From the IMG/VR virus record IMGVR_UViG_3300037508_000928, positions 1 to 50,261 of that record: a stretch of DNA of 50,261 bases; one strand, written 5' to 3'. The stretch is from a virus (taxonomy: Duplodnaviria; Caudoviricetes). Below, piece after piece: positions 1 to 47,432 of the stretch. The position numbers were made by a program, and so were the translations under genes. The notes under the pieces were generated by a model, which searched no databases, was not told the origin of the DNA, and saw nothing but the letters and a program-made list of their open reading frames with translations. Within the stretch, counting starts at the first letter, position 1. Every line of letters starts with the position of its first letter.

Positions 1-785
1 CCATTATCGACCCTGACATTGTGGACATCCGGCGATTCAAGGACATGACCGCCCAGGGTGGCCCATTCATTATCCCGCTCCAGAAAGACCGCCCTCTCGA
101 AAAAAGCATCAAAGACGCCTATATGCCGATTGTCACGCCCGACACCACGCAGAACGTGTGGGGGGACGTGGCACAGATGTTGGCTCTCACCCGCGAGAAT
201 GACGGTGTGCAAGACCCCGGCAGCCTCCCCGAGCGTCCCACGGCGGCGGGTATTCATGCCCTAGAGCAGACGCCCCTTGGCCTGCTGCTGCTTACGGCGA
301 TGCGGATTGACGAGCAATCCTTCCAGCGCCAGGGCTACCACATGCTCTGCAACACCACGCAGTTCATGCAGGGCGAGGTAATGATCGACATCCTTGGTGA
401 GCAGGAAGCGATTATCCGCGAGCAGTACGGCCTCCTGCCCCACGAGCAGACGTTGAGCGTCACAAGCTGGGACATCGACCCTAATCTCGACGTGCAAGCG
501 GTGATGACCGGCGCGGACGGCGGTATCAACGTCCAATCCCTTGTCGAGTTTGGCAAGACCATCATGGCACAGGAAGGTGTCATGCCAGCATTCCTCCAGC
601 GCTACGACCTCGACGCCGTGCTTGACCGCATGTGGCGCGAGATGGGGTTGGGGGCACTCGATAACTACCGCATCCGGTTCATGGACGACGACATGGTAAA
701 CCAGATGGCCGCGTCTGGCCAGTTGGCAGGTATTGGCGTACAGAACCCCTCCGCCGCACCCGGCGCCGCAATGGTGGGCGCATGA
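1..785 (+). CDS. Portal protein, C-terminal part (continues from 49157..50261)
   Basis: Frame open from base 3 (IIDPDIVDIRRF...) to TGA 785. Lies between terL and scaffold, with an 'ERPTAA' portal-like motif. Confidence 0.8.
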   Translation, partial: IIDPDIVDIRRFKDMTAQGGPFIIPLQKDRPLEKSIKDAYMPIVTPDTTQNVWGDVAQMLALTRENDGVQDPGSLPERPTAAGIHALEQTPLGLLLLTAMRIDEQSFQRQGYHMLCNTTQFMQGEVMIDILGEQEAIIREQYGLLPHEQTLSVTSWDIDPNLDVQAVMTGADGGINVQSLVEFGKTIMAQEGVMPAFLQRYDLDAVLDRMWREMGLGALDNYRIRFMDDDMVNQMAASGQLAGIGVQNPSAAPGAAMVGA

Positions 786-1159
786 AGCGCCCGCAGCCAC
801 AAAGAGAAGCCACGACGGCGGTGAACCCCCTTCGCCTGCACATCCTGCTTGGGGGGATCAGCGGCGACGTGCTTGGCACCGAGGAAGAACTGCGCGAGTA
901 CATCCACAACCCGTTCTACCTGCAACAGATTGTGAATGTCCTTGCTCTGATGGACCGCTACTCGTCCGCCATGTTCGAGACAAACGACCCGATGGAAGTT
1001 GCCCGGCTAAAGGCGAAGCTCGAAGTCTTGACCCTTGTGGCCGACTTCCCCGCGCGTGCGCTGGTTTCCGATAAGTCCTACCCCCCACACGAACAGCGCG
1101 AAGAAGTGCTGAATTACATCAAGGAGAAGTTCTATGCCAGACCCGGCAGAGACGAATAG
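782..1159 (+). CDS. Small helical protein after portal (hypothetical)
   Basis: ATGA overlap with the portal stop; 125 aa; usual slot between portal and scaffold. Confidence 0.7.
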   Translation: MKRPQPQREATTAVNPLRLHILLGGISGDVLGTEEELREYIHNPFYLQQIVNVLALMDRYSSAMFETNDPMEVARLKAKLEVLTLVADFPARALVSDKSYPPHEQREEVLNYIKEKFYARPGRDE

Positions 1160-1946
1160 CGCGCCCGCCGAGGACTTTGCCACGGGCGTTGAATCCCCGG
1201 ACATTGAATCCCCGGATTTGGGGGACATTGAGCCGCTGATTCTTGGAGAGGAAAACTCTGCAGATGATGAACTGTTTTCCATTGAACCAGGCGAAGACGG
1301 CACCTACACCCGCGAGCAGGTTGAAGAGCTTCAGCGCCGTCTGGAAATGGCAGAAGGTCTTGTCGATTGGAACAAGATTGCTGAAGCTGAAAACGAAAAG
1401 GCGGTGGAAGCGCCGCCCCCCGATGGTGCCCAGATCATCGAGGACGCACTGACACCCCGCGATTTCTCCTACACGGATGACGAACTCGACGACATCCTGA
1501 CAGAGGGGAATGGCAAGACCTTGGTATCGCTGCTTCAGCGACAGGCCGAGGTGGAACGCCACAACAACAAAATCGAAACAGTAAACCTCGTGGCTCGAAT
1601 GCTTCAGGGGCGCTTGCCGGTGGCGGTTGCCACCAACAGTTTCTATGAGCGCTACCCCGAATTGGCAGGGCCGAAAGGCGAGGAACTGGTCGAGCGCGTG
1701 TTCGATACGGTATGGGCACAAAACCCCCGCCAGACGAGCACGCAACTCCTGCGCGCTGCGGAGAAGCAACTCTCCCATGTGATCTCCCGCGTGAAGCAGA
1801 TTGCTGCCAACGGCGGACAGAAGCACAACCTTGCCGCGCGAGATGCAGGAGGCAACGCAAACGGTACTGCACCGCAGTCGCGGCGACAGAGCCAAAACCA
1901 GAGAACCAACGCTCAGAGCCTTGCATCGCTTGGCTATGACGTTTAA
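1134..1946 (+). CDS. Putative capsid scaffolding protein
   Basis: AGGAG RBS; very acidic disordered N-terminus, helical middle and basic C-terminus; position before capsid genes. Confidence 0.65.
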   Translation: MPDPAETNSAPAEDFATGVESPDIESPDLGDIEPLILGEENSADDELFSIEPGEDGTYTREQVEELQRRLEMAEGLVDWNKIAEAENEKAVEAPPPDGAQIIEDALTPRDFSYTDDELDDILTEGNGKTLVSLLQRQAEVERHNNKIETVNLVARMLQGRLPVAVATNSFYERYPELAGPKGEELVERVFDTVWAQNPRQTSTQLLRAAEKQLSHVISRVKQIAANGGQKHNLAARDAGGNANGTAPQSRRQSQNQRTNAQSLASLGYDV

Positions 1947-1963
1947 CACAGAAGGAATACCCC

Positions 1964-2332
1964 ATGTCTGCATGGCTTGACTCCAAGAATCGCACGCTTG
2001 AGGCGATTGACTACACCCCGCAGCTTCAGAACGCTACGGCCTCGATCTCTTACGAGAATCGCGGCAAGCTGCTGCATCACCTTTCCATGGCATCCGGCGA
2101 AGCCCTGGTGCTGACTCTGCCCCGAATCGCTGAAGCGATCATCGGCATCCCGTACATGTTCGTCTGCACCGTCGATGGCGGCGGTGGCGCGACGTTCACT
2201 GTGCAGGACAACGACGACGCTGTGCATTCTGGGCAGGACATCGCGCTTGTGTTCAAGGACGTTGGCGACAACGCAACGATCCTTTGCAACGGCCAGTGCT
2301 GGTCGGTCCTCTCCAGCGACTTGACGGCGTAA
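1964..2332 (+). CDS. Putative virion structural/decoration protein
   Basis: AAGGA RBS; 122-aa beta-rich protein in the head operon. Confidence 0.55.
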   Translation: MSAWLDSKNRTLEAIDYTPQLQNATASISYENRGKLLHHLSMASGEALVLTLPRIAEAIIGIPYMFVCTVDGGGGATFTVQDNDDAVHSGQDIALVFKDVGDNATILCNGQCWSVLSSDLTA

Positions 2333-2344
2333 GGAGAATCAACC

Positions 2345-3016
2345 ATGAGTCTCCCCACCCCCGGCAAGATTGACAACAGCGAAGACCTCCTTCGTCTGTT
2401 CGGTATCGAGCCTGCTGGAACTGACGCAGCCCCTTTGCCGAAACTGACGACTGGCTTGGTTGTTGGTACTGCCAACTACACCAACGCCGAGTTGAATGCG
2501 GCACTTGGCGGTGGAACGGTTTCCTTCGCCATGAAGACGCCTAACGCGGCAACTTCGAGCGCGCGGACTGGCACAACTGAAGCGATATTCTCGACCGGGA
2601 GCCAGTCTCTCACAACCGAGGAACTCAATCGCGTCGGTGCCGTCATCGAGTTTGAAGCCCGCATCCTGGTTACTGGCAGCAACGGCGCTGACACGCAGAC
2701 CTTTGCCATTCGGCTGGGTGGCGTTGGCGGAACTGTGATTCATTCCACTGGTCCAGTAGGCTTTGCTGCCGATGATATTGTGTTCCTGAGTGGTCGGATC
2801 ACGGTTCGCACGACAGGAGCGACAGGAACCATCGTTGCAGGCGGCAGGTCAATGGCCGAAGTTTCTGCGACGGCAGCAGCGGTTCCGTGGCGGCTTGCTT
2901 CGACAACCGTTGACCTCACAGCCAACGCGGTGCTCTGCGTTACCGCCGACGCTTCCAGCGCGAACGCAGGTAACACGGCGGTACTGGAGGACTTCCACGT
3001 CCGCGTCATTAACTAA
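2345..3016 (+). CDS. Putative capsid decoration protein
   Basis: TAAGGAG RBS; Ala/Gly/Thr-rich beta protein in the head operon. Confidence 0.55.
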   Translation: MSLPTPGKIDNSEDLLRLFGIEPAGTDAAPLPKLTTGLVVGTANYTNAELNAALGGGTVSFAMKTPNAATSSARTGTTEAIFSTGSQSLTTEELNRVGAVIEFEARILVTGSNGADTQTFAIRLGGVGGTVIHSTGPVGFAADDIVFLSGRITVRTTGATGTIVAGGRSMAEVSATAAAVPWRLASTTVDLTANAVLCVTADASSANAGNTAVLEDFHVRVIN

Positions 3017-3080
3017 CCCCGACCAGGCGCTCTAAGTGGGGCGTCTGGTGATTCGATAAACCGAAGCTACATAGGAAAAG

Positions 3081-3141
3081 ACATAGCCCCCACGGAAAAC
3101 CGTCGCGGCCTACTCCTTACGGAGTGGGCCGCTTTCATTTT
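3081..3141 (+). promoter_or_regulatory. Leader RNA switch copy 1 (antiterminator overlapping an intrinsic terminator) upstream of the major capsid gene
   Basis: ACATAGCCCCCACGGAAA is identical to 47359-47376. Terminator stem GCGGCCTACTCC-TTAC-GGAGTGGGCCGC is followed by TTTCATTTT. Confidence 0.75.
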
Positions 3142-3171
3142 CTCGGGGCTTCCAAGAAAAGGAGGCTTATC

Positions 3172-4503
3172 ATGGCCGGACCCTCTCTGATTACGACCGC
3201 TGGGCCGCTGGTGACGACCGACCGCATTGACGGAATCCGCCAGCCGTCCCGCAACCCGAACGTAACGAAGTACACGCCTTTCTCCAAGGCGTACCCGACC
3301 CTGTGGCGCATGGACAAGATCGCCAAGGGGTCGAAGGAAACCGTTGACGCTAACGAGCGCATCTGGTATCAGGCTGCCTACAACGGCCTGAACGGAACGG
3401 TGGGCGACATCCTGACCGAAGTAAGCGGTGCCGCTTACGTGTCGGGTGGTGTGGCCAACACCGTGCTCATTCTGAAGTGCGCCACGGCATCCATCCCGGC
3501 GTTCCGCAATGTGCAGCAGAACGATGTCCTAGTGATTCAGGACAGCGTGACTGGCTTGGACGTGTTTGCTCGCGTGACCGGCGCTCCGGTGTTCGGTGGC
3601 GACAGCAACACCTACGTCTCGGTGACGTTGCTCACGGCAGACGCCAGCGCGATTCTGGCGAGCGCCAGCCTGACGTGGTGCATCACCCAGCGCGCCGAGA
3701 AGGAAATCTACGAGCTTGGAGACGCTGTTTCCGAGCACGAGACGCCCTTCATGAACTACGTGCAGGAGATGAGCGAGGCTCACGAAATCTCCGAGCGCGA
3801 ACTCATGGTCAAGAGCGAACTCAACGAGAACCGCAAGGCCGACCGCGCGCGGGAATCGTTGGTGCGCCTGATGCAGAAGCGTTTCCGCACGCTGCTCTAC
3901 GGCCAGCGTCTCTCTGCCGGAAGCGGGCGTTTCTACGCCGGTGGCCTCCGTTGGTTCCTTGAAACCTACGAGTCGGCCAACTTGGTCAACTGGGCCACGG
4001 ACACGACCTACTCGGCGGCAACTGACCGTGTATCGAGCGGAACCATCCCGTTCCTGCGCGAGATTGCGATTCAGGCGTCGAAGTACACCGACCCCACCGA
4101 CACGCTGACCATGCTCATGAGCCAGACGAAGAAGAACATCCTCTCTTCGTGCGTGCTCAACTCTGGCCACTACACGATCTCGAAGGAAACGAATTCCTTC
4201 GGGTTGGAAGTGGACATGCTGCTTGGTGTGGGCCCGAAGATCGAACTGATGGTCGAGGCTGAGTTCAACACCAACCCGGTGCTTGCTCAGGCCACGCCGC
4301 TGTTCCCGACCAAGTTCATCAAGGTTTGCCCGTTCAAGAACGGCGCCGTGACCCAGATTCCCTGGAGTTCGATGCCCGCACAGCGCGACGGCGACAACTT
4401 CAAGACCTCGATCAAGGGTGGCCATCGCGTCATTGAGACGTATGAGTTCCACCACATCGACTCGATGTTCTGGATTCGCAACCTCGGCGTTGACAAGGCC
4501 TAA
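3172..4503 (+). CDS. Major capsid protein (DUF5309/SU10-like HK97 fold)
   Basis: AAGGAGG RBS before ATG 3172; 443 aa; motifs NYVQEMSEAHEIS, RTLLYG and RFYAGGLRWF recall this capsid family; position after scaffold. Confidence 0.8.
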   Translation: MAGPSLITTAGPLVTTDRIDGIRQPSRNPNVTKYTPFSKAYPTLWRMDKIAKGSKETVDANERIWYQAAYNGLNGTVGDILTEVSGAAYVSGGVANTVLILKCATASIPAFRNVQQNDVLVIQDSVTGLDVFARVTGAPVFGGDSNTYVSVTLLTADASAILASASLTWCITQRAEKEIYELGDAVSEHETPFMNYVQEMSEAHEISERELMVKSELNENRKADRARESLVRLMQKRFRTLLYGQRLSAGSGRFYAGGLRWFLETYESANLVNWATDTTYSAATDRVSSGTIPFLREIAIQASKYTDPTDTLTMLMSQTKKNILSSCVLNSGHYTISKETNSFGLEVDMLLGVGPKIELMVEAEFNTNPVLAQATPLFPTKFIKVCPFKNGAVTQIPWSSMPAQRDGDNFKTSIKGGHRVIETYEFHHIDSMFWIRNLGVDKA

Positions 4504-4512
4504 CCTAACCTG

Positions 4513-4546
4513 ATCGGGGGGAGCGGCACGGGTCGCTCCCCCCGAT
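4513..4546 (+). terminator. Strong hairpin after the capsid gene (stabiliser or partial terminator)
   Basis: 13-bp inverted repeat ATCGGGGGGAGCG...CGCTCCCCCCGAT; no U-tract. Confidence 0.5.
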
Positions 4547-4557
4547 ACGAGGGAACA

Positions 4558-5664
4558 ATGAGCACAGCACTCGACATCGTAACGCAGGTACGCAGCCAGA
4601 CCGGCAAGAAGAATCTTCTGAACGCCGGGGCTACCGACCTGTCCACGGATGCTTACTGGCACCTAAATGCGTGCTTGAAGTGGCTATCCCGCCGTGGCCC
4701 TGCCCACTCGAAGGACGAGCGGTACGAGGTTGACCTTGCTGTTGGCGCGATAGGCATTACGCCGCCCCGCTTGCGCTACATCAACGAGGTGGCGATTTAT
4801 AACGAAACAGACGACGAAGAGACTTACTTAGAACGTCTTGATCTGCACCAACTGCGCCGCCGCTATCCCGAGCAAACAGTCGAGCAGGGGCAGCCTGCCT
4901 ACTGGGCTCGCAACAACGAGCGCACGCCGCGAATCATCGGTGACACGATTATCAACGGTAGCTTCGCCAACGGGCTGACTGGCTGGGACACGGTTAACGG
5001 CGCCCCCAGCGTGTCCGGTGGAACACTCACCTTGGCCTACGCGGGCGTGGGTGTAGATCAAGACGTTATTCGGCAAGTGCTTTCTTATACCTACCCCAGC
5101 ACGGTGACGGTGACGGTTGTGGTATCGACGATTACAGCGGGCGAAACTCTCCGGTTGATACTCGGGAACTGGGACGGAACCACTTATACCGACAGCGAAT
5201 ATCTTGCGATTACTGCGGCGGGGACGTACACCTTCGAGGCAACCACCCTGGATACCTTCAACGCGATCCAGTTGAGCCAACTGGGGGCTGCACTCCCGGC
5301 CACCGTGACGGTTGCATCGGTATCCATGAGTGCGACAGCAACCCCCCAGGGCGAGACTGACCCGTGGTATGGGTACGAGATTGTTTTCAATCCCCCGGCA
5401 GATGCTGTCTACAAGATGCGCGTCTATGGCGGGTACTACCCGATCAGCGTTACCGCCCACACCGACGAAACGTGGTGGATGGAGAAGGAGCCCGAGTGCG
5501 TCATTGATGCAATGCGACTTTCCCTCGAAGGGCGCCTGCACCGCAACGCTGAGGGTGAGGACCAAGAACTGCGCCGTCTTATGGCGGAAGTCACCCAGAT
5601 CAAATCAGCGCTTCACTGGGAGGAAGCGTTTGGCTCCAACCAAGACTTGAGGCTCGGACTATGA
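4558..5664 (+). CDS. Head-tail adaptor / tail tubular protein A-like, with inserted carbohydrate-binding-like domain
   Basis: N-terminal 'ALDIVTQVR' helix and GQPAYW...NPPADAVY adaptor-type motifs, interrupted by a ~130-aa NGSF...W beta insert. Confidence 0.6.
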   Translation: MSTALDIVTQVRSQTGKKNLLNAGATDLSTDAYWHLNACLKWLSRRGPAHSKDERYEVDLAVGAIGITPPRLRYINEVAIYNETDDEETYLERLDLHQLRRRYPEQTVEQGQPAYWARNNERTPRIIGDTIINGSFANGLTGWDTVNGAPSVSGGTLTLAYAGVGVDQDVIRQVLSYTYPSTVTVTVVVSTITAGETLRLILGNWDGTTYTDSEYLAITAAGTYTFEATTLDTFNAIQLSQLGAALPATVTVASVSMSATATPQGETDPWYGYEIVFNPPADAVYKMRVYGGYYPISVTAHTDETWWMEKEPECVIDAMRLSLEGRLHRNAEGEDQELRRLMAEVTQIKSALHWEEAFGSNQDLRLGL

Positions 5665-5876
5665 AGATGCACGGCAGCGTCCCCAAGCCCATAGAGCGTA
5701 TCTCGAAAGAGGAACTGCGGGCACGGCATATCGCGCGCGCGCAGCGCCGGAAAGACGCCGAGAAGCGCGAAGTGGACCTCCTGCGCGAGCAGGTCAAAGA
5801 ACTCGAAGAACAGGTAGCAGACAGCATTGGAACCATTGTCATTCAAGATAGCGTGCAGGACGGGGATAAGGCCTGA
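5661..5876 (+). CDS. Small coiled-coil hypothetical protein
   Basis: ATGA-coupled to the previous gene; 71 aa, charged. Confidence 0.55.
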   Translation: MKMHGSVPKPIERISKEELRARHIARAQRRKDAEKREVDLLREQVKELEEQVADSIGTIVIQDSVQDGDKA

Positions 5877-7422
5877 AGCGTTCAACGGACGCAACACCCA
5901 AGCCTTCGTCAATGCCAAGGGACACCGTGTTACGGAACACGGGTTTAAGGCGTTCCATGCCCTGACGGCGCTCCCTGATGATGCCACGATTGCTGGACTC
6001 GGTGAATCAAAGGCGTGGCCATTCCCTCAGACGTTCATTGGAAAAGCCATCTCACTTGTCTGCTTCTCGGATGCGATCTATGAATACAGCCTGGGTGGTG
6101 GCACGTATACCCAGTTGAACACGAAGGACGCTGCCGATACTACGGGGACCACCTCGAAGGCAATCACTGCCGGAAAGGACTGGCACTTCGTTGATCTCTA
6201 CGACTCGTGGATGCTGTTCAACACCGCCTGCGTCGTATTCAAGACCAAGTGGAGCGAGCATGTCTTTGTGCAGGACGCGGTGACGGTTACTACCGGCTGT
6301 GTCCACAAAGAAGGCAGGGTTCTACTCGGCGGCTTCAACCCGGCTGACTACCTCTCGTCGGTGAACTGGGCAACCTTCTGGGAAACCTATGCTGCCGACC
6401 GGCCTGACCAGGCTGCGCTGATGGAGTCTGCTGGCGCTGGGGTCAACTGGGTTTGGTGGTCGAGCTACTTCGCCCCGGACATGCTTCACCTGTTCTGGCA
6501 GGACATCATGATCCACCAGTCATTGAGCGCCAGCAACACAGGGTATGGCGCGAGCAACCCGTTCATGCTCGAACTGGAAGAACTCAACCAGTCGGGCCTG
6601 CGCCCAATGCCGTGGCAGGGGGCGGTGCAAGGAATGCTCCCGCTTGGCCGTGGGGTAGCTGTGTATGGCTCTCTTGGAACCTCCGTTCTGAATCCCTACG
6701 GCGACACCTATGGAGTTATTGCACCGAGGGATTTGCCTCCGAATTTCGCTCTTATGAACGGCAGTGACACGCGCACCAACTTTGCTGGGAATGAGCAAAT
6801 GCACGTTGTCGTAGATTCCAGTGGGGAACTCTGGACTATCGACGAGTCGTATCTGGCAAAACGGATAGGCCGCAAGGCAGAGATCGGGGCGCTAGACCCT
6901 GATACCCTGATGGTGGTTCACGAGCACTACCACAACGAATTCTATATTGGCGATGGCAGCGGGGACGCCTTCCTTTTTAACAAGCAAGGTTTCAGTCGCG
7001 CCCCTTGGATGCCGACACAGGTGACAACCCTGTCAGCATCTCAGATTTACTCTGTTTCCTTTGCTACAGACAATGCCGCTGCTTACACCACCGAGAAGTT
7101 TCGCGGGCGTAGCCAGGGCATTGAATGCCTTGAGCGCATTCTTATCGTGGGGCTCAACGAAGGAACCACGCACGGCTGGGAATGTTCCCTGAAGTACCGA
7201 CTTCGCCCGCAAGACGACTTCACCTCAACCGATTGGTTTGAACTCGATGCCGAGGGCGGCGTTGATTTCGGCCTCCCTTACCTTGAAGCAGAAATTGCCC
7301 TTCGCAGCGATGACCGAACCAAGGTCACGCTGGAAGACATCCTTGTCTATTCCGGCCCCATGAACAACCCGGCGATGGGGCATTGGATGCGTGCATCTAC
7401 CCCGGCAGCCGCAACGGAGTAA
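5827..7422 (+). CDS. Tail tubular B / nozzle-like protein, paralog 1
   Basis: 531-aa beta-rich protein sharing motifs with the next two ORFs; TTG start uncertain. Confidence 0.6.
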   Translation: MEPLSFKIACRTGIRPEAFNGRNTQAFVNAKGHRVTEHGFKAFHALTALPDDATIAGLGESKAWPFPQTFIGKAISLVCFSDAIYEYSLGGGTYTQLNTKDAADTTGTTSKAITAGKDWHFVDLYDSWMLFNTACVVFKTKWSEHVFVQDAVTVTTGCVHKEGRVLLGGFNPADYLSSVNWATFWETYAADRPDQAALMESAGAGVNWVWWSSYFAPDMLHLFWQDIMIHQSLSASNTGYGASNPFMLELEELNQSGLRPMPWQGAVQGMLPLGRGVAVYGSLGTSVLNPYGDTYGVIAPRDLPPNFALMNGSDTRTNFAGNEQMHVVVDSSGELWTIDESYLAKRIGRKAEIGALDPDTLMVVHEHYHNEFYIGDGSGDAFLFNKQGFSRAPWMPTQVTTLSASQIYSVSFATDNAAAYTTEKFRGRSQGIECLERILIVGLNEGTTHGWECSLKYRLRPQDDFTSTDWFELDAEGGVDFGLPYLEAEIALRSDDRTKVTLEDILVYSGPMNNPAMGHWMRASTPAAATE

Positions 7423-7427
7423 ATACC

Positions 7428-9368
7428 ATGCCTGAGCAATCTATGAACTTGGACCCACATTTGACGAATGGCCTGCGCCCCTACGCGGACCTGCCGAAAG
7501 ATGCCCTCTTCATGCAGAAGATGCGCAACATCATGGCCACGGAGCGGCGCGGCAAGCAATTGCCTACCTTCAGTTGGCCTGTGGGCTTTCAGACGCTTGG
7601 CTCCACCTTCCCCCACGCGGAGTTGTTCTACGACGACCGAGTGGCGCTGGCGGCGATTGACAGCGCCCTGTACACCGTGGACCCGTCTGCACTGACGACT
7701 ACGGCAATCACGACTTACGGCCCCGAGGGCAACGTCCTGACAAACGGAACCTTCACCGGCGCGCTCACCGGCTGGACCGAGGCCAGTCCCGACATCGCCT
7801 ATGGAACGAACAACGTAGCGTTCGTTAATGCCACGGCTACCCTGAAGCAGCTTCTGGCCAGCATGACAACGGCCTGGACGGCAGCGGCCACGTATCGCGT
7901 GGTGTTCACCATCTCGGGGTATTCGGGTGGCGGCAACATCACGGTCGGCACGAACACGAACGCGGCTCAGGGTGGCTCGGCTGTGACTGCGAACGGAACC
8001 TATACGCGCCTCGTGACGGCGGACGCGCACGCAGACGGCCTTGTGTTCACGGCAACGGGCTTTACAGGCAACCTCGACACCGTGACGGCCACGCGGGTAT
8101 TCACGAACACCACGGGCGACGCCTACCAGTTTGCCTCGTTCCTCGACATCTGGTTTGCCACGAACAACTCAGGCCTCGTCTGGCGTATCCCCGGCGCAAC
8201 GCAGGGGAACACGGTCGGCAGTTCCACCACCGTCTGCAAAGGCGTGGCCAACTGGAACAACCGCCTGGTGCTCATCGGGGTTTCCGGCGCGGCAGTCAGC
8301 AATGCCAGCTTCCTTGCCGCTGTGAACAAGTGGAAGAAGAAGCAGAAGGTCAATGTGGTGACTGCCGAGGATGACGCCTTCGACACAAGCTGGATCATCA
8401 TCGGCCCCCCGGTCCTTGGCGAAAGCGACGTACCAGCATCGGGCTTGATGGCGCTTCTGGGCTACCCGAGCGAGACGTTCTACTACGACAAGTACGAGCC
8501 CATCGTCTCGAAGTGGATTGAGCAGGGAATGCTCGACTTCCTTCCCATGCGCCACACGGGCGCGGGACTGGCGGGAAAGCAGCACGGCAACGACCTCATC
8601 ATCTACGGCACCGAGGGTGTCTCGAAGGTAACAGGCACCGAGGTTGGCCCGGTCGAGACGAAGCTGCTGGATGTCGGTATTCCGTTCAACGGCTGCTACG
8701 CTGGCGACGAGAAGGAGCATGTCTTTGTCTCCAAGCACAACGAGATGTTCTTCCTGGGCGAGCGCGGGCAGAGCTTCCCCGAGGCGAAGTCCATGGGGAA
8801 CGGCCTGTACCGGCTGGGCTATGCCGAATACCTGAGCACCCTGACGCTCACGGCAGCGCGGATGACCTTCGACCCGACCGAGCGCTACTTCTGGGTCTGT
8901 GACGCGGACGAGGCATTTGTGCTCTCGCGGACAGGCCTTTCCAACCCGAAAGGGCTCTTCCCTGTCAGCGTGATCCGCACCCCCGGCTACAACGGCCTTG
9001 TGGGCTCCAGCGTGAGCGCCCAAGCCGATGACGTTGAAATGCAGCCGCACCCGTTCGGTATGGGGCGCAGTGATGCGTTCGAGATTTTCTGGTGGGATAT
9101 GCGGACCAGCGACACGGCAGCGACCGCAGCAGATCGCTGGAAGGTGACGCCGATTGCGAAGCTGCACAAGCAGAACGCCTTCACCACCTTCACCAGCTAC
9201 GCGAAGCTGTTCGACGTGCGCGGGCGTGCGGAAGTGACCACGACGGGCATTGAGCACCAACCCTCGTTTACGGCGGCAGACCGAACCGCCGTTGACTGCG
9301 ACGGGCTGCAAGCGTTTATCAGCGCGCCCGGCGCGGCACCTTCAATGAGGATGTGGATGGATGCGTGA
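7428..9368 (+). CDS. Tail tubular B / nozzle-like protein, paralog 2, with CBM-like insert
   Basis: GGAG RBS before ATG 7428; shared motifs (NGLRP, YQFASFLDIWF, WNNRLVLIG). Confidence 0.6.
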   Translation: MPEQSMNLDPHLTNGLRPYADLPKDALFMQKMRNIMATERRGKQLPTFSWPVGFQTLGSTFPHAELFYDDRVALAAIDSALYTVDPSALTTTAITTYGPEGNVLTNGTFTGALTGWTEASPDIAYGTNNVAFVNATATLKQLLASMTTAWTAAATYRVVFTISGYSGGGNITVGTNTNAAQGGSAVTANGTYTRLVTADAHADGLVFTATGFTGNLDTVTATRVFTNTTGDAYQFASFLDIWFATNNSGLVWRIPGATQGNTVGSSTTVCKGVANWNNRLVLIGVSGAAVSNASFLAAVNKWKKKQKVNVVTAEDDAFDTSWIIIGPPVLGESDVPASGLMALLGYPSETFYYDKYEPIVSKWIEQGMLDFLPMRHTGAGLAGKQHGNDLIIYGTEGVSKVTGTEVGPVETKLLDVGIPFNGCYAGDEKEHVFVSKHNEMFFLGERGQSFPEAKSMGNGLYRLGYAEYLSTLTLTAARMTFDPTERYFWVCDADEAFVLSRTGLSNPKGLFPVSVIRTPGYNGLVGSSVSAQADDVEMQPHPFGMGRSDAFEIFWWDMRTSDTAATAADRWKVTPIAKLHKQNAFTTFTSYAKLFDVRGRAEVTTTGIEHQPSFTAADRTAVDCDGLQAFISAPGAAPSMRMWMDA

Positions 9369-10914
9369 GTACGCCTTCGAGATCGGGCAAGCCCTCGTCA
9401 ACGGGATAGTTCCGCACGAGCATGTCCCGGCAGGCGCTCCCTTTGCGGAGAGCATGGGTAATCTTGTCCCGCGCACGTTGGCTGGCTGTGCCACGAACCC
9501 CGAGCAGATTGTGCAGGGCGTATCGGCCACGCCAGTATGGCCGACTTCGCGCCTCTACTACGGCGACCAGACGATGTTGCTGCTGGAGGCGGCGGGTATC
9601 AGCACGGTTGACCCAGCCACGAACGCCAAAACGGCGATCACGCTTTACAACAGCGCCGACAACACCAGCGCGGCAACGCTTGCTGGGGGCGGTGGCTACT
9701 GGCAGGCGGTTTCGGCTGAAGACATCTGGTTCGCCTGCGACGGCGTGAACCTGGTGGGCAATCTCCCGCGCAACACGGACGGCCTGAAGAATACCCAGAT
9801 AATGACCCCCATCACCTGTAAAACGGTGGGGATGCACTTGGACCGGCTTGTCCTTGGTGGGCTCGGTGGCGCGTGGTTCAGCAGTTCGCGTTTCCTCTCC
9901 CTGTTCAGCGTATTCCGCAACAGGAAGCAGCACTTCACGCACGACCTTCAGACGTGGAGCACGCGCTGGATCGTTTACGGTGAGCCTATCGGTGGTGACA
10001 CGAGCGCGCCGTATCAGCTTCTCCTGACGGCGCTTGGCTGCTATGGGAATGCCGTCTTCGACAAGGTGGAAGGCGAGATTCGCCAGCAGATCGAGCGGGG
10101 GGCTATTGGCTTTGCCAGTATGCGGCGTGGCGGTGTCCCGCAAGTCATCATTCCGCAGGGCCAGCGTATCCTCGTCTTCGGGGAACGTGCCCTCTACGAA
10201 TTCAACCCCGAGCAGGGGGGCCCCGGCTACGTGGGGCGCATGGAACGCGAGACGCAGATTGCTGGCCGTGGTGCGGCTTTCGGTGTCGAGCGGGATACGG
10301 TTTGGCTGTCTCAGAATGGGAATCTATCCCGCTGGGTGCTCGGCCAGGGCATAGGGGAACCGCTTGGCTGGAAGCACAAACTGGCCAGCCTCTCGAACCC
10401 TGTCATCTCCTACGACACCGAGCTTGGCGAATATTGGATATCCGATGCCACGAGCGCCTATGTCTTGACGGCCAACGGTCGGCTGGGTGGTCCAATGACA
10501 GCGCGCCCGACAGGTGTTTTCCGGTATAATGGTGTCCTTCGAGGCACGGGCCTTGGATTGACAAGTCAAGACGCTTTGGACGTTGAATTCCAGCTTCATC
10601 AAACGGACATGAATTACCGTGGGACGAAGGCCACCACTGTTGTCGAGGTTCTGTATGAGAACTTGTCCGATTTGGAAGTCGAGATATACGCCCGCGATGG
10701 TGCGGGCGAGGATTATTCGTTATTCCCCGCTGCGGAATCCGTCAACTCTGAAGGGGTTGCCTTTCCTAAGCGTAGCTCGAACGACTTCCGACCAACCATT
10801 AAAGGAACGGGCGATGCAAGCACAGGCTACTCCTTCCAAGGTGCAACCGTTCGATACAACGGCGAAGACCGAAAATACCGCCGAGGCGCTACCGCCCCCG
10901 CCGAAGGTACTTGA
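9361..10914 (+). CDS. Tail tubular B / nozzle-like protein, paralog 3
   Basis: Overlaps the previous stop; shared motifs (NGIVP, WQAVSAEDIWF, HLDRLVLGG). Confidence 0.6.
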   Translation: MREYAFEIGQALVNGIVPHEHVPAGAPFAESMGNLVPRTLAGCATNPEQIVQGVSATPVWPTSRLYYGDQTMLLLEAAGISTVDPATNAKTAITLYNSADNTSAATLAGGGGYWQAVSAEDIWFACDGVNLVGNLPRNTDGLKNTQIMTPITCKTVGMHLDRLVLGGLGGAWFSSSRFLSLFSVFRNRKQHFTHDLQTWSTRWIVYGEPIGGDTSAPYQLLLTALGCYGNAVFDKVEGEIRQQIERGAIGFASMRRGGVPQVIIPQGQRILVFGERALYEFNPEQGGPGYVGRMERETQIAGRGAAFGVERDTVWLSQNGNLSRWVLGQGIGEPLGWKHKLASLSNPVISYDTELGEYWISDATSAYVLTANGRLGGPMTARPTGVFRYNGVLRGTGLGLTSQDALDVEFQLHQTDMNYRGTKATTVVEVLYENLSDLEVEIYARDGAGEDYSLFPAAESVNSEGVAFPKRSSNDFRPTIKGTGDASTGYSFQGATVRYNGEDRKYRRGATAPAEGT

Positions 10915-13429: not shown

Positions 13430-14557
13430 ATGCCGATTACGGTCAACTTCAAGAGCCTGGGCGAGTCTGCCACGTATCCCGATGGCACGACCGAGGATGT
13501 GATCCACGACGATTACCAGCGCCGTCAATTCCGTGGTGGGTACAAGGCCAACCCGATTCAGTCGATCATGGGGCTGATGGAACACATCACCTCGCGCCCG
13601 ACTGCCCCTACGCCAGCGAGCGTAGACGGGGCCAGCGTTATCGGCCTAGCGCCTGACCAGACGACGGCGCTCCTGGACCGCGTGCAGCGCACCAACGAAG
13701 TTGAGCAGAACGCCTACCAGCAGGAGATTGCACGCGCGGCACAGGTCAAGGAGGCACAGGCCCAGCGCCAGTTCTCGATGCAGTCCCAGCAGCAGGACCA
13801 GCAGTTCCAGCTTGACCGAGACAAGGAGCAGGATGCCAAGACGACGAAGGAGAAGCTGGAAGGGACAGTGAAGCCAGACGGGCAAGGGGGCTACGACTGG
13901 GTACGCCCTGACCCTGTAACGGGTAAGCCACTCATCGACAAGCTCCAGAAAGGCTCGAACCAGTGGAAGTCGCTCAACATGCCCGATGGCGGCGTGTCAC
14001 AGGTGGAGATGGACCCCAGCGGCAGGATGCTCGGCACTCCCCAGACCGTTATTGCTGGCCAGAAGGACACAACGAACTGGCAGCAGGTAGGAAGCCCCTA
14101 TCAGACCGCTGATGGGCAATTTGTCCAGAACCTCATCAATCCCGAGACGCGGCAAATGGAAACCAAGGCTTTGCCCATGCCAGCAGCAAAGCCGCAGGCG
14201 CTCAAGATGGTAAAGGATACGGCTGGCAACCTGTTCGCCCAGTACACAGACCCGACGACCGGGGCAGTCACCCTCCGCAAAGCTGAGGTTCCCCCCGAGT
14301 GGGTGACTGAGCAAGCGAAGAAGGACGGGATTAACCTCGACGACTTCAACTCCGAGTGGGATGCCACGGTGATGGAAGAATTCGACGGTGTTATCGAGGC
14401 TGAAGATGTCCCCGCCGTCACGGAGCGGGTGCAGGCGAGGCTGTTGGCCAAGCAGACAGCAGTGAATTCCATGAACACGCCAGCGGAAGTAATCTTCGTG
14501 GGTAAGGACGGCAAACGGTATCTCGATCTCGGAGACGGTACAGCGGAGGAGCTTTAA
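13430..14557 (+). CDS. Putative internal virion protein
   Basis: GGAG RBS; Gln-rich coiled coil followed by 'DP.TG' beta repeats; TAATG-coupled to the giant gene. Confidence 0.55.
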   Translation: MPITVNFKSLGESATYPDGTTEDVIHDDYQRRQFRGGYKANPIQSIMGLMEHITSRPTAPTPASVDGASVIGLAPDQTTALLDRVQRTNEVEQNAYQQEIARAAQVKEAQAQRQFSMQSQQQDQQFQLDRDKEQDAKTTKEKLEGTVKPDGQGGYDWVRPDPVTGKPLIDKLQKGSNQWKSLNMPDGGVSQVEMDPSGRMLGTPQTVIAGQKDTTNWQQVGSPYQTADGQFVQNLINPETRQMETKALPMPAAKPQALKMVKDTAGNLFAQYTDPTTGAVTLRKAEVPPEWVTEQAKKDGINLDDFNSEWDATVMEEFDGVIEAEDVPAVTERVQARLLAKQTAVNSMNTPAEVIFVGKDGKRYLDLGDGTAEEL

Positions 14558-17500
14558 TGGCTAAGGGCGATATTGTCCCGATTGCGAGTGTCCAGCAAGG
14601 CGGAACCGCGACTGCACCAATGGAATCTCAGACTGCAAAGCGGCGAGTTCCAATTGAAAGCGTCGCAGACCCTGTTGTATCTAAAGTCTTGGCTGCCGCA
14701 AAGCGCTACAACGTAAACCCTACCTTGGCCACTGCCGTTGCCAAGGCGGAATCGAACTTCGTCCAGCAGTCTGTCTCCCCGGTAGGAGCCACGGGCGTGA
14801 TGCAGCTCATGCCGGGAACGGCCAAGGACTTGGGCGTTGACCCGTGGAACGAGGACCAGAACATTGACGGCGGCGTGCGCTATCTCGGGCAGATGCTCGA
14901 ACGGGCCGGTGGCGATGTGGACAAGGCGCTCGAATACTACAACTTTGGCATGGGCAACGTGGATGCCGGGAAGCCCTTACCCGCTGAGACGGTGCAGTAC
15001 AAGGCCCGCATCAAGAAGCTCATGGGGATCACCGACCCGCCCATCACGGCGGCGCAGGCTGAAGCGATAATCCCGAAGCAGCAGAGCAATTTCTCGAAGG
15101 CCATGGGCATGGGGGACGTTCAAGCCCCTGTAGGCTGGCAGCCAACCGGCGAGGATGTCGCTGCCCCGGTGGCGGCGGTGCAAGACGCGCTACATGCAAT
15201 CCCCAAGTTCCCCGGCGAACGAGCACTGGCCGCGCAGGGCGAGCGCTACATGGAGTTCCTCAACCCTACGACCCCAGCAGGCCCGTGGGAACGAGGATTC
15301 ACTCAAGGGGCGACAAACGCCGCTACCCAAGGCAATGCCGTCAAGCGCGTAGTGGTCGGCGGGCTTGCTGACGCTGGCAGCGGCTTACTGAGCAGCGTGG
15401 CCACTTTGGGTGCTGACCGTAAGACCGCCGACCAGATCGCGGCGGACAAGGCTATTCTCTCGGAAGCGTCGTTAGAAACCGACAAACAGAATCTCGGTGC
15501 AGTCGGGCGTGTGCTCCGACCTGCCACTCAGAATGCCGTGTCGAACATAGCCCAAGTGGGCGTAGCGTCGGCTGGTGGCTTCCCCGTCATCGCTACCCAG
15601 TTCATGACGACCTCCTACGATGACGGGCTCCGCCAAGCGCAGGCCGCTGGCTTGCAGGGCGAGGACATGCTGAACTACGCACGGCGCCAGTCTCTCTACG
15701 AGGGCGGTGTCATGGCGGCATTCCAGGCCGTTGGCCTGCCCGGCCTTGAGAAGCTGCCGTTTATGGCCATCGCCCCCGCCGTGGTCAACCAGGTGAAAAC
15801 CTCACTCGCTCCCGCCATGAAGCGCACGCTCATGACCTTTGGGCAGGAGTTGCCTGAAGAGACTATCACCTGGGCGCTCCAGACGGCAGATTCCCAGATG
15901 TCGAACGTCAGAAAGCCGATGACGACAGAGGAATACACGAAGGAGTGGTTGAACCTCGCACTTGAAACGGCGCTGAGTGTCGGGGCGTCCAGCACTCGCG
16001 ACCTTGCCCGTGGCGTGCGCGACTCTGTGGTCAGCGACTTCAGCGGGATTGTCCAGCCGGATACCTTCAACCCTGAAATGCAGCTTGGCGGGGTTCTTCC
16101 CCAGCCCGCAGCCGAGGTGCCGGTCGAGGCGGACATAGCTGCCAGCCAGCAGGCCACGACCCCCGAGTCTCCCATCGTGGATATTCCAGCCGGGGAGGCC
16201 AACCCCGAGGAGCCTGAGCAGCCGAAGAAGAAGGCCAAGCTGATCTACGCCGACATGCCCACCGAGCAGCTTCAGTCGTTGCTGGAGCAGGGCGGCATGG
16301 CCAACCCTGTCAAGGTGGCGATCCAGCGGGAGTTGGCGAATCGGATCGCGCCCGAGCAGCCAGTGGCTCCCAAGCAGCCGTGGGATATGACGCGGGAGGA
16401 GTATGACCAAAGCCGCGTTGACGAACTTAATGCCCTCAACCCGCAACTTGGGGGGCGGTTGAAGCTGGAAATACTTAGTGAAGAAGAGCAGGCGCAACGT
16501 CCAACTCTTGATTCTGCGCCCGGCGCAAAATCGGTAGGCGGGCATTACGGTTCAACGATAACACGAGCTCAAAATGCGCCAAGCGGGACAGCCTCGCATG
16601 AAATACGGCACATGATTGATTTACTTCTTGGTGGAAACCAAGTTACTGCCTATGTTAATGACCTAAAAACAAAGTTTAAGGATCGATTTTCATTACTGAC
16701 AGACTATCTTAAATCAGCAAGAAAAGACGGAAAGATAGGCGGCAGGACGACGGTAGATGAAGAAACAGCACAAATGGTTCTTCATGCCTTTTATAAGGAT
16801 CGTGAAGGGCTAAGATCAGCCTCTCCAGATATTGTGCAGTTCTTAGAAGAGATGGGTGCTGATAAATATTCACACCTTCAAGATTCTCACAAATCAAAAG
16901 TGGAACAAGCCCTCCGTGACGGCAAGCCCGTCCCGCCCGCCGTGCTCGCTGAGTACCCCGACCTCGCGGAGAAGTACGGGAAGCCGACTCCCGGCCAGCA
17001 AATGCTGCGCAGGCCGGTAGCCGAACGGCTTGTGCCTGAGTTACAGCGTCTCCATTTCCCCACCACGTTCACGGGCCAGCCGACTCCCGGCCAACAGATG
17101 CTGCGCAGGCCGCAAGGGGAGGCTCCACAGGACACACTTTCGCAGCCGGAGACTTCCGAGCAAGTCCAAGGGAATACCCCTGCACAGGCAGATACCCCGG
17201 AAAGTACCCCGATAGCGGCTCCGGTGAATCAACCGTTGGAACTGCAATCGCCCGATGCCGTTCGTAAGGCAGCAGCAGCCCCAAAGATTGAAGAACTAAA
17301 GAGGCAATATGAGGAGGCGCGGCTCGTAAACAATGTGCGCGATGGGCTACGCATTGAGGCGCAGTTGCAGGGAGGACCAGAGTTTACTGACCCAGCAGCG
17401 CAAGCCGCTGTCAAGCAGCAACTGGTAGCCGTGGACCAAGCGATCAGTGAACGCAGGCCAGTGAATGCCGAAGCCATGAGAGATTGGGCCAATGTCGCTA

Positions 17501-20500
17501 CATCTAATGGTTTTGACGAAAGCGGCAACATACCGCGCCGTGGCATTCCTTCGGGCTACGCGCAAGACGGGGATGTTTACACCTTTCAACTTGACTCCCC
17601 CACCCCCGGCTTCCTTCCCCAAGCACAGGAACTCGCCAACCCCAACTGGAACAAGCCAGCCGCTCCTGACGCCAAGCAGCAAGCCCTCAAGGATGCCGCT
17701 CAGAACCTTGCAGCCATCGAGGGCAAGGCCGAGCCAGTCATAAGCGCTGGGCAGAATACCGCGTTCGACAAGCTGACGGAGAAGCCGAAGGAGCGTAAGC
17801 CGTGGTTTGAAAGCTATGAAGAGCTTTCTGAGCACTTGGCTACCGCCCTTCCCGATCACAGCGTTTCCCACGTTGGTCAATCAGTTTCAGTTTACGGGAA
17901 GTACAACGACCAGCAGTTGGTGAAGGAGTGGGCCGAAGCCCTTCCAATGCGCAGCGACGTGGACGCACTGGTCAAGAAGTTGCGCCCGCAAGAGCAGCCT
18001 GTAACTGATTCTGCTCCTGCCCCCACCCGCGCTGAGAAGATAGCCCAGCGCCGCGCGCGCGCCAAGGCAGAGCTTACGTCCGTTCCTGATGTGGCGCCGC
18101 AGACGGCTGGCCCCCGTGGACAGTACGCAATCCCTGGGGAAGAGGAAACGGTTCGGGCTCAGGAACAGGAAGTCGTGGACCGTGCGGCGTTCCGGGACAG
18201 GGTGCTGAGTGAATTCGAGGATCAGGAACTGACTGACCGTATTGTCACGGACCTTTGGCCCGCCGCGCGCAAAGCACCGGAATACATCAAGAAGGGAATG
18301 AGTATCGAGGAGACGACGACGACGATTCGGAATAACACCGACGAAACCTACCTTCGAGACTATCCCGACCTAAACGAGAACGCCCTCCTGCGCGTGCTGG
18401 ATGGACACGCTGAAGACATTGGCGCCAAGGACACCGCAGGGTTCCGTAGGCAGGTGGACAACCTTCAGACCATGCACCCCGACCTGCCCCGCAAGTCCAT
18501 TGAGCGCATGGTCGAGGCTGTTGACGCCGGTGATGCGAGAGCCGTCAAGGCGATCCTTCACCCAGGCAACCCCGGCTCTCACGACATATTCCAGGCCATA
18601 ACTGGCTATGAGTTGCCTTCTAAGAGCAAACGCACCCAGAAGGCAGTCCACGCAATTGTTGACGAGTGGTGGGGGAAGCTGGCGCCTGAGTCGCGGGTGC
18701 CAGAACTGGAACTAGACACATCACTTCCTCGTGAAAAATACATCAAGCTGTTTGTGGACAGGGACCCTGCTGTCCAGGCGGCAGCGGACGATCAGGTTGA
18801 GGATGCACGCCATCACGCTGAACGTGTAGCAGAAGGCCGCTGGCTTGCTGCTAATCCGAAAGCCCCCGTCGATGACATGAATGGGTTCCTTGCTGGAAAG
18901 ATTCCGATGCAGGCCGGGAACATCAAGAAGCAGTTGGCCAAGACGTACAACTTCAACGGCACGGAGTTGCAAACCTACCAAAGCTTCATCGAGAAGCATT
19001 GGTCGGACGGCAGCCTGATTGCGCAAATATACGATGACGGTGAAACGCGGCAGCACATCGTCAATGGCTACAACCTGCCAAAGACTGCATTCGATTATGC
19101 CCAGCACCTTCTCGGTGACAGAGCAATTCAAGAAACTCCCTTGCAGGCCAAGCAGGCGGAACTGCGTGACCTGATGCAGAAGATCAGAAATGAGAGTCAA
19201 TTCAACCGTAAGATTGAGCTCAATCAGAAGATCAACAAGGTGCGGTCTGAGATAGGTGAACTCAAGCGCCCCGACTGGGTAAAAGACGCGATTGCTGATA
19301 CAATCAATACGGAGACACCGACCGATGGACGCGAAGATATTCAAGGACAGCCTGACGAACAGCCCGATGTGGTGGGAGGCACTGGCGCACCTCGAAGAGA
19401 TGCAGCCCCGTCTTCTGGAGACTCTTCTGGCGAAACCGGAGAAGCTGGTGGAACTGCTGGATCACAGGACACAGCAGGCGATAGACGCGATATACGACCT
19501 TCAACAGAAGGGGATGAGCTACGAGGAAGCGGCGGAGCGGGTAAGCCCGGACGTACTTCGCCCAGGGTGGGAAGCCCAAGGGGGACTGCCGGAGATTCCA
19601 CTGAACGGGATGGGGGAACGGAAGCTGGCGGCGTTCAGAAAGGCAGCAATGGAGTAAAGGCGGAGAAGGTTGACGACGGCAAGCGGAACCACCGCATTGG
19701 CGAAGATGACACCATCGCGCCCGATGGCCAGATTTCCAAGATTAAAGCCAACCTGCGCGCGCTGCGAATCCTCAAGGAACTCGACCAGCAGGAGCGGGAT
19801 GCCACTCCCGAAGAACAGAAGGCTCTTGCCCAGTACACGGGTTGGGGACATTCCCCACAGGTCTTCGATGAAAAGAAGGCGCAATGGTTTGAAAACGAGT
19901 ACCCCTACTCCGTCTCCCAGCGGGACACCAAATGGGGCGACAAGTTCTACCAGCACTACAAGGAGGCTAAGGAGCTTCTTTCCCGCTCCGAGTGGATGGC
20001 TGGGCTCAAGTCCACGCAGTACGCGCACTACACGGCGAAGAACGTCGTGCAGTCCATGTGGAAGATCGCGGAGCGGCTTGGCTTCTCGGGCGGGCGCGTG
20101 CTCGAACCCGGCGCCGGTGTGGGCAACTTCCTTGGCCTGATGCCGGACGGCTTCAAAGGCACCACCTTCGTTGCCGTCGAACTTGACGACACGAGCGGGC
20201 GTATCCTGCAAAAGCTGTATCCGAAGGCCAAGATATTCATTAAGGGCTTCCAGGACGCCAAGATTCCGCCTAACTCCGTTGACTTGGTGATAACGAATGT
20301 CCCGTTCTCTTCCAATGGGCCGAAGGATACGCCGTATCCCACGCTGAACCTGCACAACTACTTCTTCGCCCGGAGCCTTGATGTGCTCAAACCTGGCGGC
20401 ATAGTGGTGGCAATCTCTACCCATTACACGATGGACGCCAATCCGAAGCAGCGGGAGTTTCTGGCGAGCAAGGGCAATCTTGTCGGCGCGATTCGATTGC

Positions 20501-28620: not shown

Positions 28621-28797
28621 TACCTCAAAAGTACCAATTGACGGTAAAAAGGGCACGATTTGAAATGTAAATCCAGTGTTTCCGTAGGGTAAGCTATACT
28701 GCGTCAACATCATGTCAAGAGTCTCCTATACTGTAAGTGTTTGCAGCACAACACTTAAAGAATCGCCTTGACGTACCTGATACCATAACGATACCAT
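28619..28797. other. Putative attP region
   Basis: AT-richer intergenic region before the integrase. TACC-core repeat pairs at 11-bp spacing at both ends (28619/28630; 28779/28790). Palindrome TAAGTGTT-N8-AACACTTA (28734-28757) with IHF-like CAA-N4-TTA. Confidence 0.5.
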
Positions 28798-28832
28798 CCT
28801 GCCAGCTTAATCGCGTTGATTTTGGAGGCAAT

Positions 28833-30785: not shown

Positions 30786-30868
30786 GCACGTACTCACACG
30801 TACAAACGCGAAAATGTGCTTGACAATACACGTACAAACGATTACTATTCGGCCATTGGAGGCCGTAC
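30786..30868 (+). promoter_or_regulatory. Rightward early promoter with repeated operators
   Basis: TTGACA(30820)-N17-TACTAT(30843). ACACGTACAAACG at 30796 and 30828 (the latter in the spacer). Further CGTAC cores near 30789 and 30864. Confidence 0.75.
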
Positions 30869-30869
30869 A

Positions 30870-47421: not shown

Positions 47422-47432
47422 GGAGTCTAACA

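Follow-up and report, generated by a model that had tools for sequence, protein, structure and literature searches.

Gene order around the two sites

The window analysed here is a whole IMG/VR virus record of 50,261 nt, which is rated 100% complete. A portal-like ORF (49145-50260) is open at its 3′ end and resumes in frame at 3-785 when the window ends are joined. Thus, the record is a circularly permuted complete genome, though it is classed as linear. The N-terminal part of this ORF has a weak match to solved portal proteins (8zkk, E 8.4e-6). An integrase gene at 28737-29885 marks the phage as temperate, and the replication block consists of AAA_24, helicase, and primase (PriCT_2 + AAA_25) genes. 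No RNA polymerase gene was found among the phage ORFs scanned, and the phage genome has no tRNA gene as a hint of its host. Near-identical DNA occurs in lake-water metagenome runs; 20 were listed, and six of them have at least half of the sampled words; the record may derive from one of the runs. No RNA run containing phage sequence was among the runs listed. Four lake-water DNA runs compared with window positions 1-10000 gave only short fragments with patchy cover, either >=99% or <90% alike, and no differences that would amount to extra variation were listed over these positions.

All the genes from about 41.9 kb through the circular junction to about 28.6 kb, at the gene of a 4687-aa protein, are rightward. 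The genes of this array to which the text refers are as follows.

42012-42479, RusA gene
42861-43250, gene of a 129-aa protein with a basic N-terminus, an HTH, and a long helix (AF2 model pLDDT 81)
43651-44250, gene of a 199-aa protein with an HTH and a helix (model pLDDT 63, weak HTH rows only)
47249-47350, + strand, 33-codon ORF with a start codon that overlaps the stop codon upstream (TAATG here, TGATG in a related phage)
47433-49160, + strand, terL, the terminase large subunit gene, with a GTG start (phrog_38, E 3.9e-33)
3172-4503, + strand, major capsid protein gene of the SU10 type, with an ATG start (Pfam SU10_MCP and Atlas)
14557-28620, ORF of 4687 aa with N-terminal SLT lytic transglycosylase and SNF2/ResIII helicase domains, 28% of the genome

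The rightward genes run from a promoter-like site at 41876 (TTGACA-17-TAAACT). The order upstream of terL, and of the terminator T1 that precedes it, is an Arc-like RHH gene, the RusA gene, the 129-aa protein gene, a 400-nt gap, and the 199-aa protein gene. Then come the genes of lysozyme-like and membrane proteins, two genes of beta-rich proteins, and the 33-codon ORF. The lysis-like genes (lysozyme-like and membrane) were assigned by reading the translations. The capsid gene matches Pfam SU10_MCP with E 3.7e-4, which is under the family cut-off, and 29 of its 30 nearest clusters in the Atlas are SU10_MCP (score 0.98, structural TM 0.78). The sequence AAGGAGG lies 7 nt upstream of the capsid ATG. 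The C-terminal 1300 residues of the 4687-aa ORF are 64% identical in the related phage.

The 400-nt gap at 43250-43651, between the small-terminase-like gene of the 129-aa protein and the gene of the 199-aa protein, includes a block conserved with the related phage. The block contains TATTATC-N7-GATAACA, in which an inverted repeat TTATC/GATAA lies over a -10-like TATTAT, followed by TTCATTGGG...CCAAC. A TTGAAA lies 17 nt upstream in the window, while the relative has no -35-like box. It may represent an operator and a regulated promoter, the latter possibly late.

The repeated element and its two terminators

It was found that the 18-mer ACATAGCCCCCACGGAAA occurs exactly and on the + strand at 3081 and 47359, as a sequence-only reading of this DNA had reported. 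There is no further match in the window at up to three mismatches, and two matches were obtained in 0 of 100 shuffles. The parts of the two copies are as follows.

3081-3098, + strand, 18-mer copy 1, exact match to ACATAGCCCCCACGGAAA, before the capsid gene
3086-3109, + strand, conserved motif and predicted antiterminator hairpin, copy 1 (fold of the 5′ half, -9.4 kcal/mol)
3092-3103, + strand, small hairpin P1, copy 1 (ACGG-AAAA-CCGT)
3105-3141, + strand, intrinsic terminator T2 of copy 1 (stem-loop 3105-3132, T-run 3133-3141)
47359-47376, + strand, 18-mer copy 2, exact match to ACATAGCCCCCACGGAAA, before terL
47364-47385, + strand, conserved motif and predicted antiterminator hairpin, copy 2 (fold of the 5′ half, -7.9 kcal/mol)
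47370-47379, + strand, small hairpin P1, copy 2 (ACG-GAAA-CGT; AGG-GAAA-CCT in the relative)
47381-47421, + strand, intrinsic terminator T1 of copy 2 (stem 47381-47413, T-run 47413-47421)

The motif was defined as AGCCCCCA plus the small hairpin plus CGCGGC, 23-25 nt in all. In both copies, P1 is followed by one unpaired C and then by the terminator hairpin; the P1 loop is a GNRA-type GAAA in three of the four copies known from the window and the relative. The predicted antiterminator hairpin overlaps the 5′ arm of the terminator at 3105-3109 in copy 1 and at 47381-47385 in copy 2. GCCCCCA alone is not enriched in the window (15 matches vs 10.4 expected). A possible antisense partner at position 44696 of the + strand is complementary to the motif at 12 of 14 positions; it is absent from the relative and was discarded as a chance match.

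The small hairpin and the following terminator with its U-tract, which the same reading had described for each copy, were recovered in the sequence, by folding, and in a census of terminators. T2 has a 12-bp stem with nine G-C pairs and a 4-nt loop, followed by TTTCATTTT (-29.6 kcal/mol; z -5.95). T1 has a 14-pair stem with one bulge, followed by TTTTTGTTT (-25.1 kcal/mol), and its T-run directly adjoins a GGAG ribosome-binding site at 47422-47425. T1 was missed by a simple consensus scan because of the bulge. In the census of the whole window, T2 and T1 are the two most stable clean sites of a hairpin plus a T-run on the + strand. The next + strand candidates are at -18.8 kcal/mol or weaker and are not simple hairpins, and the sole comparable terminator elsewhere in the genome, at 40000-40027 on the - strand, closes a leftward cassette. 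Thus, the genome has only two canonical rightward terminators, and both carry the motif. By stem-loop and U-run, T1 and T2 have the form of canonical intrinsic terminators. The ACTCC/GGAGT core to which attention had been drawn is present in both window copies but is not general; the capsid copy of the relative has GCTC/GAGC instead.

T1 divides the recombination, lysis, and accessory segment from terL, the portal gene, and the genes that follow. T2 divides the terL/portal block from the genes of the capsid, the tail, and the 4687-aa virion protein. Since lysis-like and small-terminase-like genes lie upstream of T1, it is not the start of the late region. Thus, the earlier claim that the two key morphogenesis operons are both gated is supported in so far as an element stands before terL and before the capsid gene, but the two copies are two gates within one co-directional gene array and do not head operons of their own. 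In the 300 nt upstream of each copy, no sigma-70-like site was found. The distance from the T-run to the start codon is only 30 nt at T2 (capsid) and 11 nt at T1 (terL). With no promoter-like site and such short gaps, about 31 kb of morphogenesis genes would depend on read-through. In three of the four copies of the window and the relative, the upstream gene stops 12-16 nt before the motif.

The 33-codon ORF ends 12-13 nt before the AGCCCCC of the terL gate, and its product has a net charge of about +2 to +3. A homologue is found at the same place in the relative (59% identity over 27 aa, E 2.5e-7). The ORF is a real small gene.

Relatives and distribution of the element

Is the element found in other phages? 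A related phage is represented by several contigs, and its TerL and capsid proteins are 77% and 86% identical to those of the window. Both syntenic sites of this phage carry the element, one ahead of its capsid gene and the other between its terL and its counterpart of the 33-codon ORF; compensatory changes are seen. Thus, homologues stand before late genes in a related phage, as would be expected if the element gates them. A covariance model (R1) was built from the four distinct copies, two from the window and two from this phage. R1 finds exactly two copies in the window, with 89.1 and 79 bits; the next window match has 16.7 bits and lies on the reverse strand of copy 1. In the related phage, it finds two copies in each of two records. 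The record of a distant relative (TerL 29%), which is 77% complete, gave no copy with R1, and no repeated module of such a kind lies before the terL or capsid gene of this relative.

TerL homologues were also found at 80, 79, 49, and 42% identity. A search of viral contigs with the single TerL protein gave two loci. A TerL alignment (A1) gave three loci on viral contigs and three on metagenome contigs, with no relatives on genome contigs. All the element-bearing loci found via TerL belong to one lineage and have an identical element sequence. On viral contigs, an exact 14-mer scan gave 114 stretches, none of which continues like the element, so that these are chance matches. No further true copy was found with a gapped pattern among the at least 123 matches listed on viral contigs. 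A tighter pattern gave a complete set of 14 stretches on viral contigs, with true copies only in the records of the relative; on genome contigs, all of the at least 120 matches listed for it are chance matches. In summary, the element family is tiny, with four instances in two lineages.

The distant relatives (TerL about 29-30%) share another conserved hairpin, ACTTC-GGGCTT-GAAGT, immediately upstream of terL. No T-run follows it, and there is no second copy before the capsid gene. Its positions in two of the contigs are as follows.

L242, 5912-5927, ACTTC-GGGCTT-GAAGT hairpin before terL
L245, about 1013-1028, the same hairpin before terL

Conservation and covariation

The motif columns are nearly invariant. 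Between the window and the relative, 24 of 25 are identical in the capsid copy and 21 of 23 in the terL copy; between the two copies within a genome, 23/25 and 20/25 are identical. For the rest of the terminator, the two copies of a genome agree at only 14/28 and 11/28 positions. In the 45 nt upstream of the motif, 25 of 50 and 25 of 48 aligned positions are identical between the window and the relative, and the approximately four-fold-degenerate third positions are identical at fractions of 0.45 (terL) and 0.50 (capsid). Nothing in the sequence upstream of the motif is common to both copies. These comparisons indicate that the motif is under purifying selection. Since the motif is nearly invariant while the remainder of the terminator drifts, the conserved unit is not the terminator itself but the 23-25 nt that lie against it and extend into it.

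It had also been stated that the two terminator stems differ in sequence and yet both pair, and the alignment of four copies agrees: each of the 13 modelled pairs is formed in every one of the four sequences (52 of 52 cells). Four of the 13 pairs have changed on both sides, one in P1 and three in the terminator. The covariation score was reached by none of 500 shuffles, and slid controls are 27-60% paired. The terL-copy motif has only two substitutions between the phages, C-to-G and G-to-C, which keep P1 paired. By simple arithmetic, two random substitutions in 23 positions would form a compensating pair with a probability well under 1/100. Since the P1 compensation is a single event, it is suggestive but not decisive. 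The unpaired or mismatched bases A10 and the C.C positions are invariant in the four copies.

Alternative folds

The full-length element folds into the terminator in the four copies (-26 to -31 kcal/mol). When the 5′ half alone is folded, the same imperfect hairpin is predicted in all four (-6.7 to -10.8 kcal/mol). It consists of GCC/GGC, one C-G pair, and P1, and is broken by two C.C mismatches. It takes up G30 and G32-C34 of the 5′ arm of the terminator, and when it is enforced, the terminator is reduced to a stump of 7-9 bp that lies 5 nt from the U-run. Such a stump away from the U-run should not terminate, given how intrinsic terminators work. In these models, the terminator and the upstream hairpin are mutually exclusive folds. 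The pairing of an upstream GCC with the GGC of the terminator arm, from which exclusive folds had been suggested, thus turned out to be part of a longer imperfect hairpin predicted in 4/4 copies.

The stability of the 5′ hairpin is unexceptional, with z from -0.86 to -1.83; equal or better folds were obtained for 8, 37, 10, and 32 of 200 shuffles. Because its lower stem is invariant, covariation lends it no support, and P1 alone covaries.

Known RNA families and candidate factors

The element matches no family of Rfam 15, which agrees with the first impression: there was no match at the gathering score in the whole window. With E <=5 in the 6 kb around both copies, the sole overlapping row is Xoo2, at 22.2 bits vs a cut-off of 45. 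No published description of such an element was found in the main texts of the literature searched.

The statement that no Q/N-like activator is visible was likewise upheld. The Q, N, CAT, ANTAR, and NusG families are absent from a Pfam scan of 41 phage ORFs, from PHROGs with 30 queries, and from NCBIfam with eight ORFs. No CAT (PF03123) RNA-binding protein was found by Pfam among the 41 ORFs; it is possible that a CAT protein is encoded by the host. The Phage_AlpA family passed the threshold in no ORF scanned. The phage encodes several small HTH proteins with no assigned role.

The conserved upstream proteins of 129 and 199 aa look, from their models, like small-terminase or DNA-binding folds and not like RNA binders. 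The model of the 129-aa protein is most like small terminases (VIA), with middling scores (2ao9, Z 7.3; TerS of Pseudomonas phage E217, Z 6.6; SF6 G1P, Z 4.9), and Foldseek gave nothing for its model at E <=0.001. This protein was considered as an N-like factor and rejected, because its basic N-terminus belongs to the small-terminase-like fold. If it is a TerS, its gene is 4 kb from terL with lysis-like genes between them; the database gene calls include only its last 69 residues. The product of the 33-codon ORF may be regarded as a candidate factor.

Two overlapping early ORFs at 30816-31438 match HTH_17 with 20.6 and 23.3 bits, below the Pfam cut-off of 27, and also match phrog_66 ('excisionase and transcriptional regulator'). 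They adjoin a near-consensus promoter at 30820 (TTGACA-17-TACTAT). The excisionase/AlpA-like HTH fold includes the antiterminator AlpA.

A possible attenuator at two gates

What is the role of the element? I favour the reading that it may be a factor-dependent terminator/antiterminator attenuator resembling the BglG/LicT RAT sites, to which I give a probability of about 0.45. In such an attenuator, the 5′ arm of the terminator (GCGGC) would alternatively be captured by the conserved imperfect hairpin of 22-24 nt that is made just before it. By default, the terminator, which is about three times more stable, would displace the upstream hairpin and transcription would stop. A trans-acting factor would hold the hairpin shut, in the way of the CAT-domain proteins of RAT systems, so that the lower terminator stem could not form next to the U-run and the polymerase would read on. 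The factor would most likely recognise the invariant AGCCCCCA, the two C.C mismatches, and the GAAA-type loop, and one factor would open both gates. Termination at these sites, its antagonism by the upstream hairpin, and the need for a factor are all inferred; purely by inference, a protein might bind the element.

Two observations bear on this mechanism. Each terminator has its own motif, only 1 nt away, and this speaks for local action and against a promoter-near loader. The invariance of A10 and the C.C bases goes beyond what pairing explains and favours a hairpin held by a factor.

The likeness to the BglG/SacY/LicT RAT sites, on which the sequence-only reading had drawn, stands for the architecture but not for the protein. 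In both cases, a short mismatched hairpin lies immediately 5′ of a terminator, overlaps its 5′ arm (by 5 nt here), and is predicted to exclude it, and the same site is repeated before each regulated terminator. Since the hairpin of the element is weaker than the terminator, it would need a stabilising partner, as at RAT. On the other hand, there is no CAT-domain protein among the 41 ORFs, the genes are phage morphogenesis genes and not sugar operons, and the hairpin of the element is 22-24 nt with two C.C mismatches and a GAAA-type loop. The element is not known to have any sequence likeness to the RAT consensus.

Regulated terminators of the ANTAR type have two tandem small hexaloop hairpins, the second of which overlaps the terminator, and work with an ANTAR protein. 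In contrast, the element has a single hairpin with a 4-nt loop, and the Pfam scans showed no ANTAR family. The HK022 RNAs putL/putR, which let the polymerase through terminators, are, like the element, a pair of conserved structured RNAs of a temperate phage. Since put RNA works with no protein factor, a cis-acting RNA would fit the absence of a recognised factor. However, put RNAs are about 70 nt with two stem-loops, lie near early promoters, and act processively, while the element is a single hairpin of about 24 nt that would physically compete with the terminator.

A weaker hairpin competing with a terminator is a classical design. What is new against Rfam and the literature searched is the motif and its duplication in a phage morphogenesis array. 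A more specific proposal, which I regard as doubtful, is that an RNA-binding factor of the phage or the host clamps this new C.C-mismatch hairpin at two identical gates and so times the packaging genes and then the capsid and tail genes by passive RAT-style antitermination, with the conserved, translationally coupled, and basic peptide of 33 residues encoded at the terL gate as the first candidate. If this were true, it would bring a new RNA family and a new protein family. No description of passive RAT-style late-gene control in phages was found in the literature searched, and to my knowledge none has been given.

Other explanations

Four other explanations were considered. In decreasing order of probability, they are ordinary terminators, a loading site of the nut or ops type, a DNA operator or promoter, and a duplication remnant.

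The first, which I consider unlikely but ahead of the other three, is that T1 and T2 are ordinary terminators within an operon that are leaky or are bypassed by a processive system loaded elsewhere (Q/AlpA-like). The motif would then have another role, such as stabilising or marking 3′ ends, enhancing termination, or serving as a processing site. As with lambda Q, 21 Q, and P. aeruginosa AlpA, late or lysis genes here lie behind intrinsic terminators that need to be bypassed. According to PMC7969949, the terminators of AlpA-type systems are 26-54 nt past the start site, and DNA-loaded antiterminators such as Q and AlpA need a promoter with an embedded binding element and bypass terminators whatever their sequence. 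Unlike at Q/AlpA sites, no promoter-like site exists at the element, and the conserved part is fused to the terminator. The conserved TTATC-N7-GATAA palindrome over TATTAT at 43250-43651 could serve as the late promoter in both phages, and the unexceptional energy of the upstream hairpin also fits ordinary terminators. The Q-dependent late operon of HK97 has four putative terminators annotated in its first 8 kb. Terminators within late operons are normal in such phages, and one before the gene of the most abundantly needed protein, the capsid, is also seen in ordinary Q-antiterminated late operons, which counts against an attenuator. However, by inspection, the four HK97 terminators have no common upstream motif, so that they serve as a control that favours the attenuator reading. 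Ordinary terminators would leave unexplained the near-invariance of 23-25 nt at the two sites of each lineage beside stems that drift. Moreover, no Q, AlpA, or other antiterminator family was found over threshold in the ORFs scanned; the HTH_17 matches at 30816-31438 are below the cut-off.

It is improbable that the element is a nut- or ops-like loading site, at which a factor would bind the GAAA-loop hairpin and the C-rich strand, either in the nascent RNA or in the non-template DNA of a paused complex, and then ride the polymerase for processive antitermination. The layout of a conserved linear sequence and a short hairpin with a GNRA-type loop would suit it; boxA and boxB share this general layout, and nutL and nutR are two copies per genome. 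Like the lambda N sites nutL/nutR, the element has two near-identical copies, each with a linear stretch and a small GNRA-like hairpin in the RNA upstream of a terminator. In contrast to nut, which is promoter-proximal and acts processively over kilobases, each copy of the element abuts its own terminator. The 1-nt spacer leaves only about 30-40 nt of transcription for loading, and one site upstream of T1 would suffice, yet each terminator has its own. Furthermore, P1 is a 3-4-bp stem with a 4-nt loop, and there is no boxA-like sequence, nearby promoter, or N family. Neither an N-like nor a NusG-like protein was recognised, and the basic N-terminus found in the 129-aa protein is part of a small-terminase-like fold.

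A role at the DNA level is more improbable still. The imperfect inverted repeat (GCCCCCACGG...CCGTCGCGGC) might be a site for a dimeric regulator, or the region might be a factor-dependent late promoter with an immediate terminator, on the model of lambda PR'-tR' or the AlpA-controlled PA0807 promoter. An inverted repeat would likewise keep its symmetry under the 'compensatory' change, and several small HTH proteins of unassigned role are encoded by the phage. At an AlpA target described in PMC7969949, one predicted terminator begins 26 bp past the start site. However, the element has no -10-like or -35-like site, nothing upstream of the motif is common to the copies, and the CATAG part varies, being GACAG in the terL copy of the relative. 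From the capsid copy to the terL copy, the spacing of the half-sites changes by 2 nt, a shift that is seldom tolerated by dimeric DNA binders. The upstream genes also end too close for this reading, 12-16 nt before the motif in three of the four copies.

The least probable is a remnant of duplication or gene conversion that adds no function to the terminators: only two lineages are at hand and conversion can homogenise paralogous copies, but it would homogenise the whole tract, whereas the identity drops sharply inside the stem (23/25 vs 14/28), the orthologous conservation is far above that of near-neutral sites, and the sole double change is compensatory.

Significance

The timing of late genes in temperate phages is textbook knowledge for lambda (Q, N), and little is known for most environmental phages. 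The two element copies are most likely identical gates that have to be opened before virus particles are made. If the attenuator reading is true, the gates would add local antitermination by hairpin competition to the control of phage morphogenesis, and would provide a compact (about 65 nt) and portable two-state terminator module together with a sequence handle to its cognate factor. If the sites are plain terminators, the transcription units of an uncultured lake phage lineage are still mapped.

A last observation concerns P1. At 3092-3100 and 47370-47376, it reads CACGGAA or CAGGGAA, which is like CANGGA and could be a chance resemblance. CANGGA is the core of CsrA/RsmA binding sites. Further GGA motifs lie at the terminator apex in three of the four copies and also in the ribosome-binding sites.
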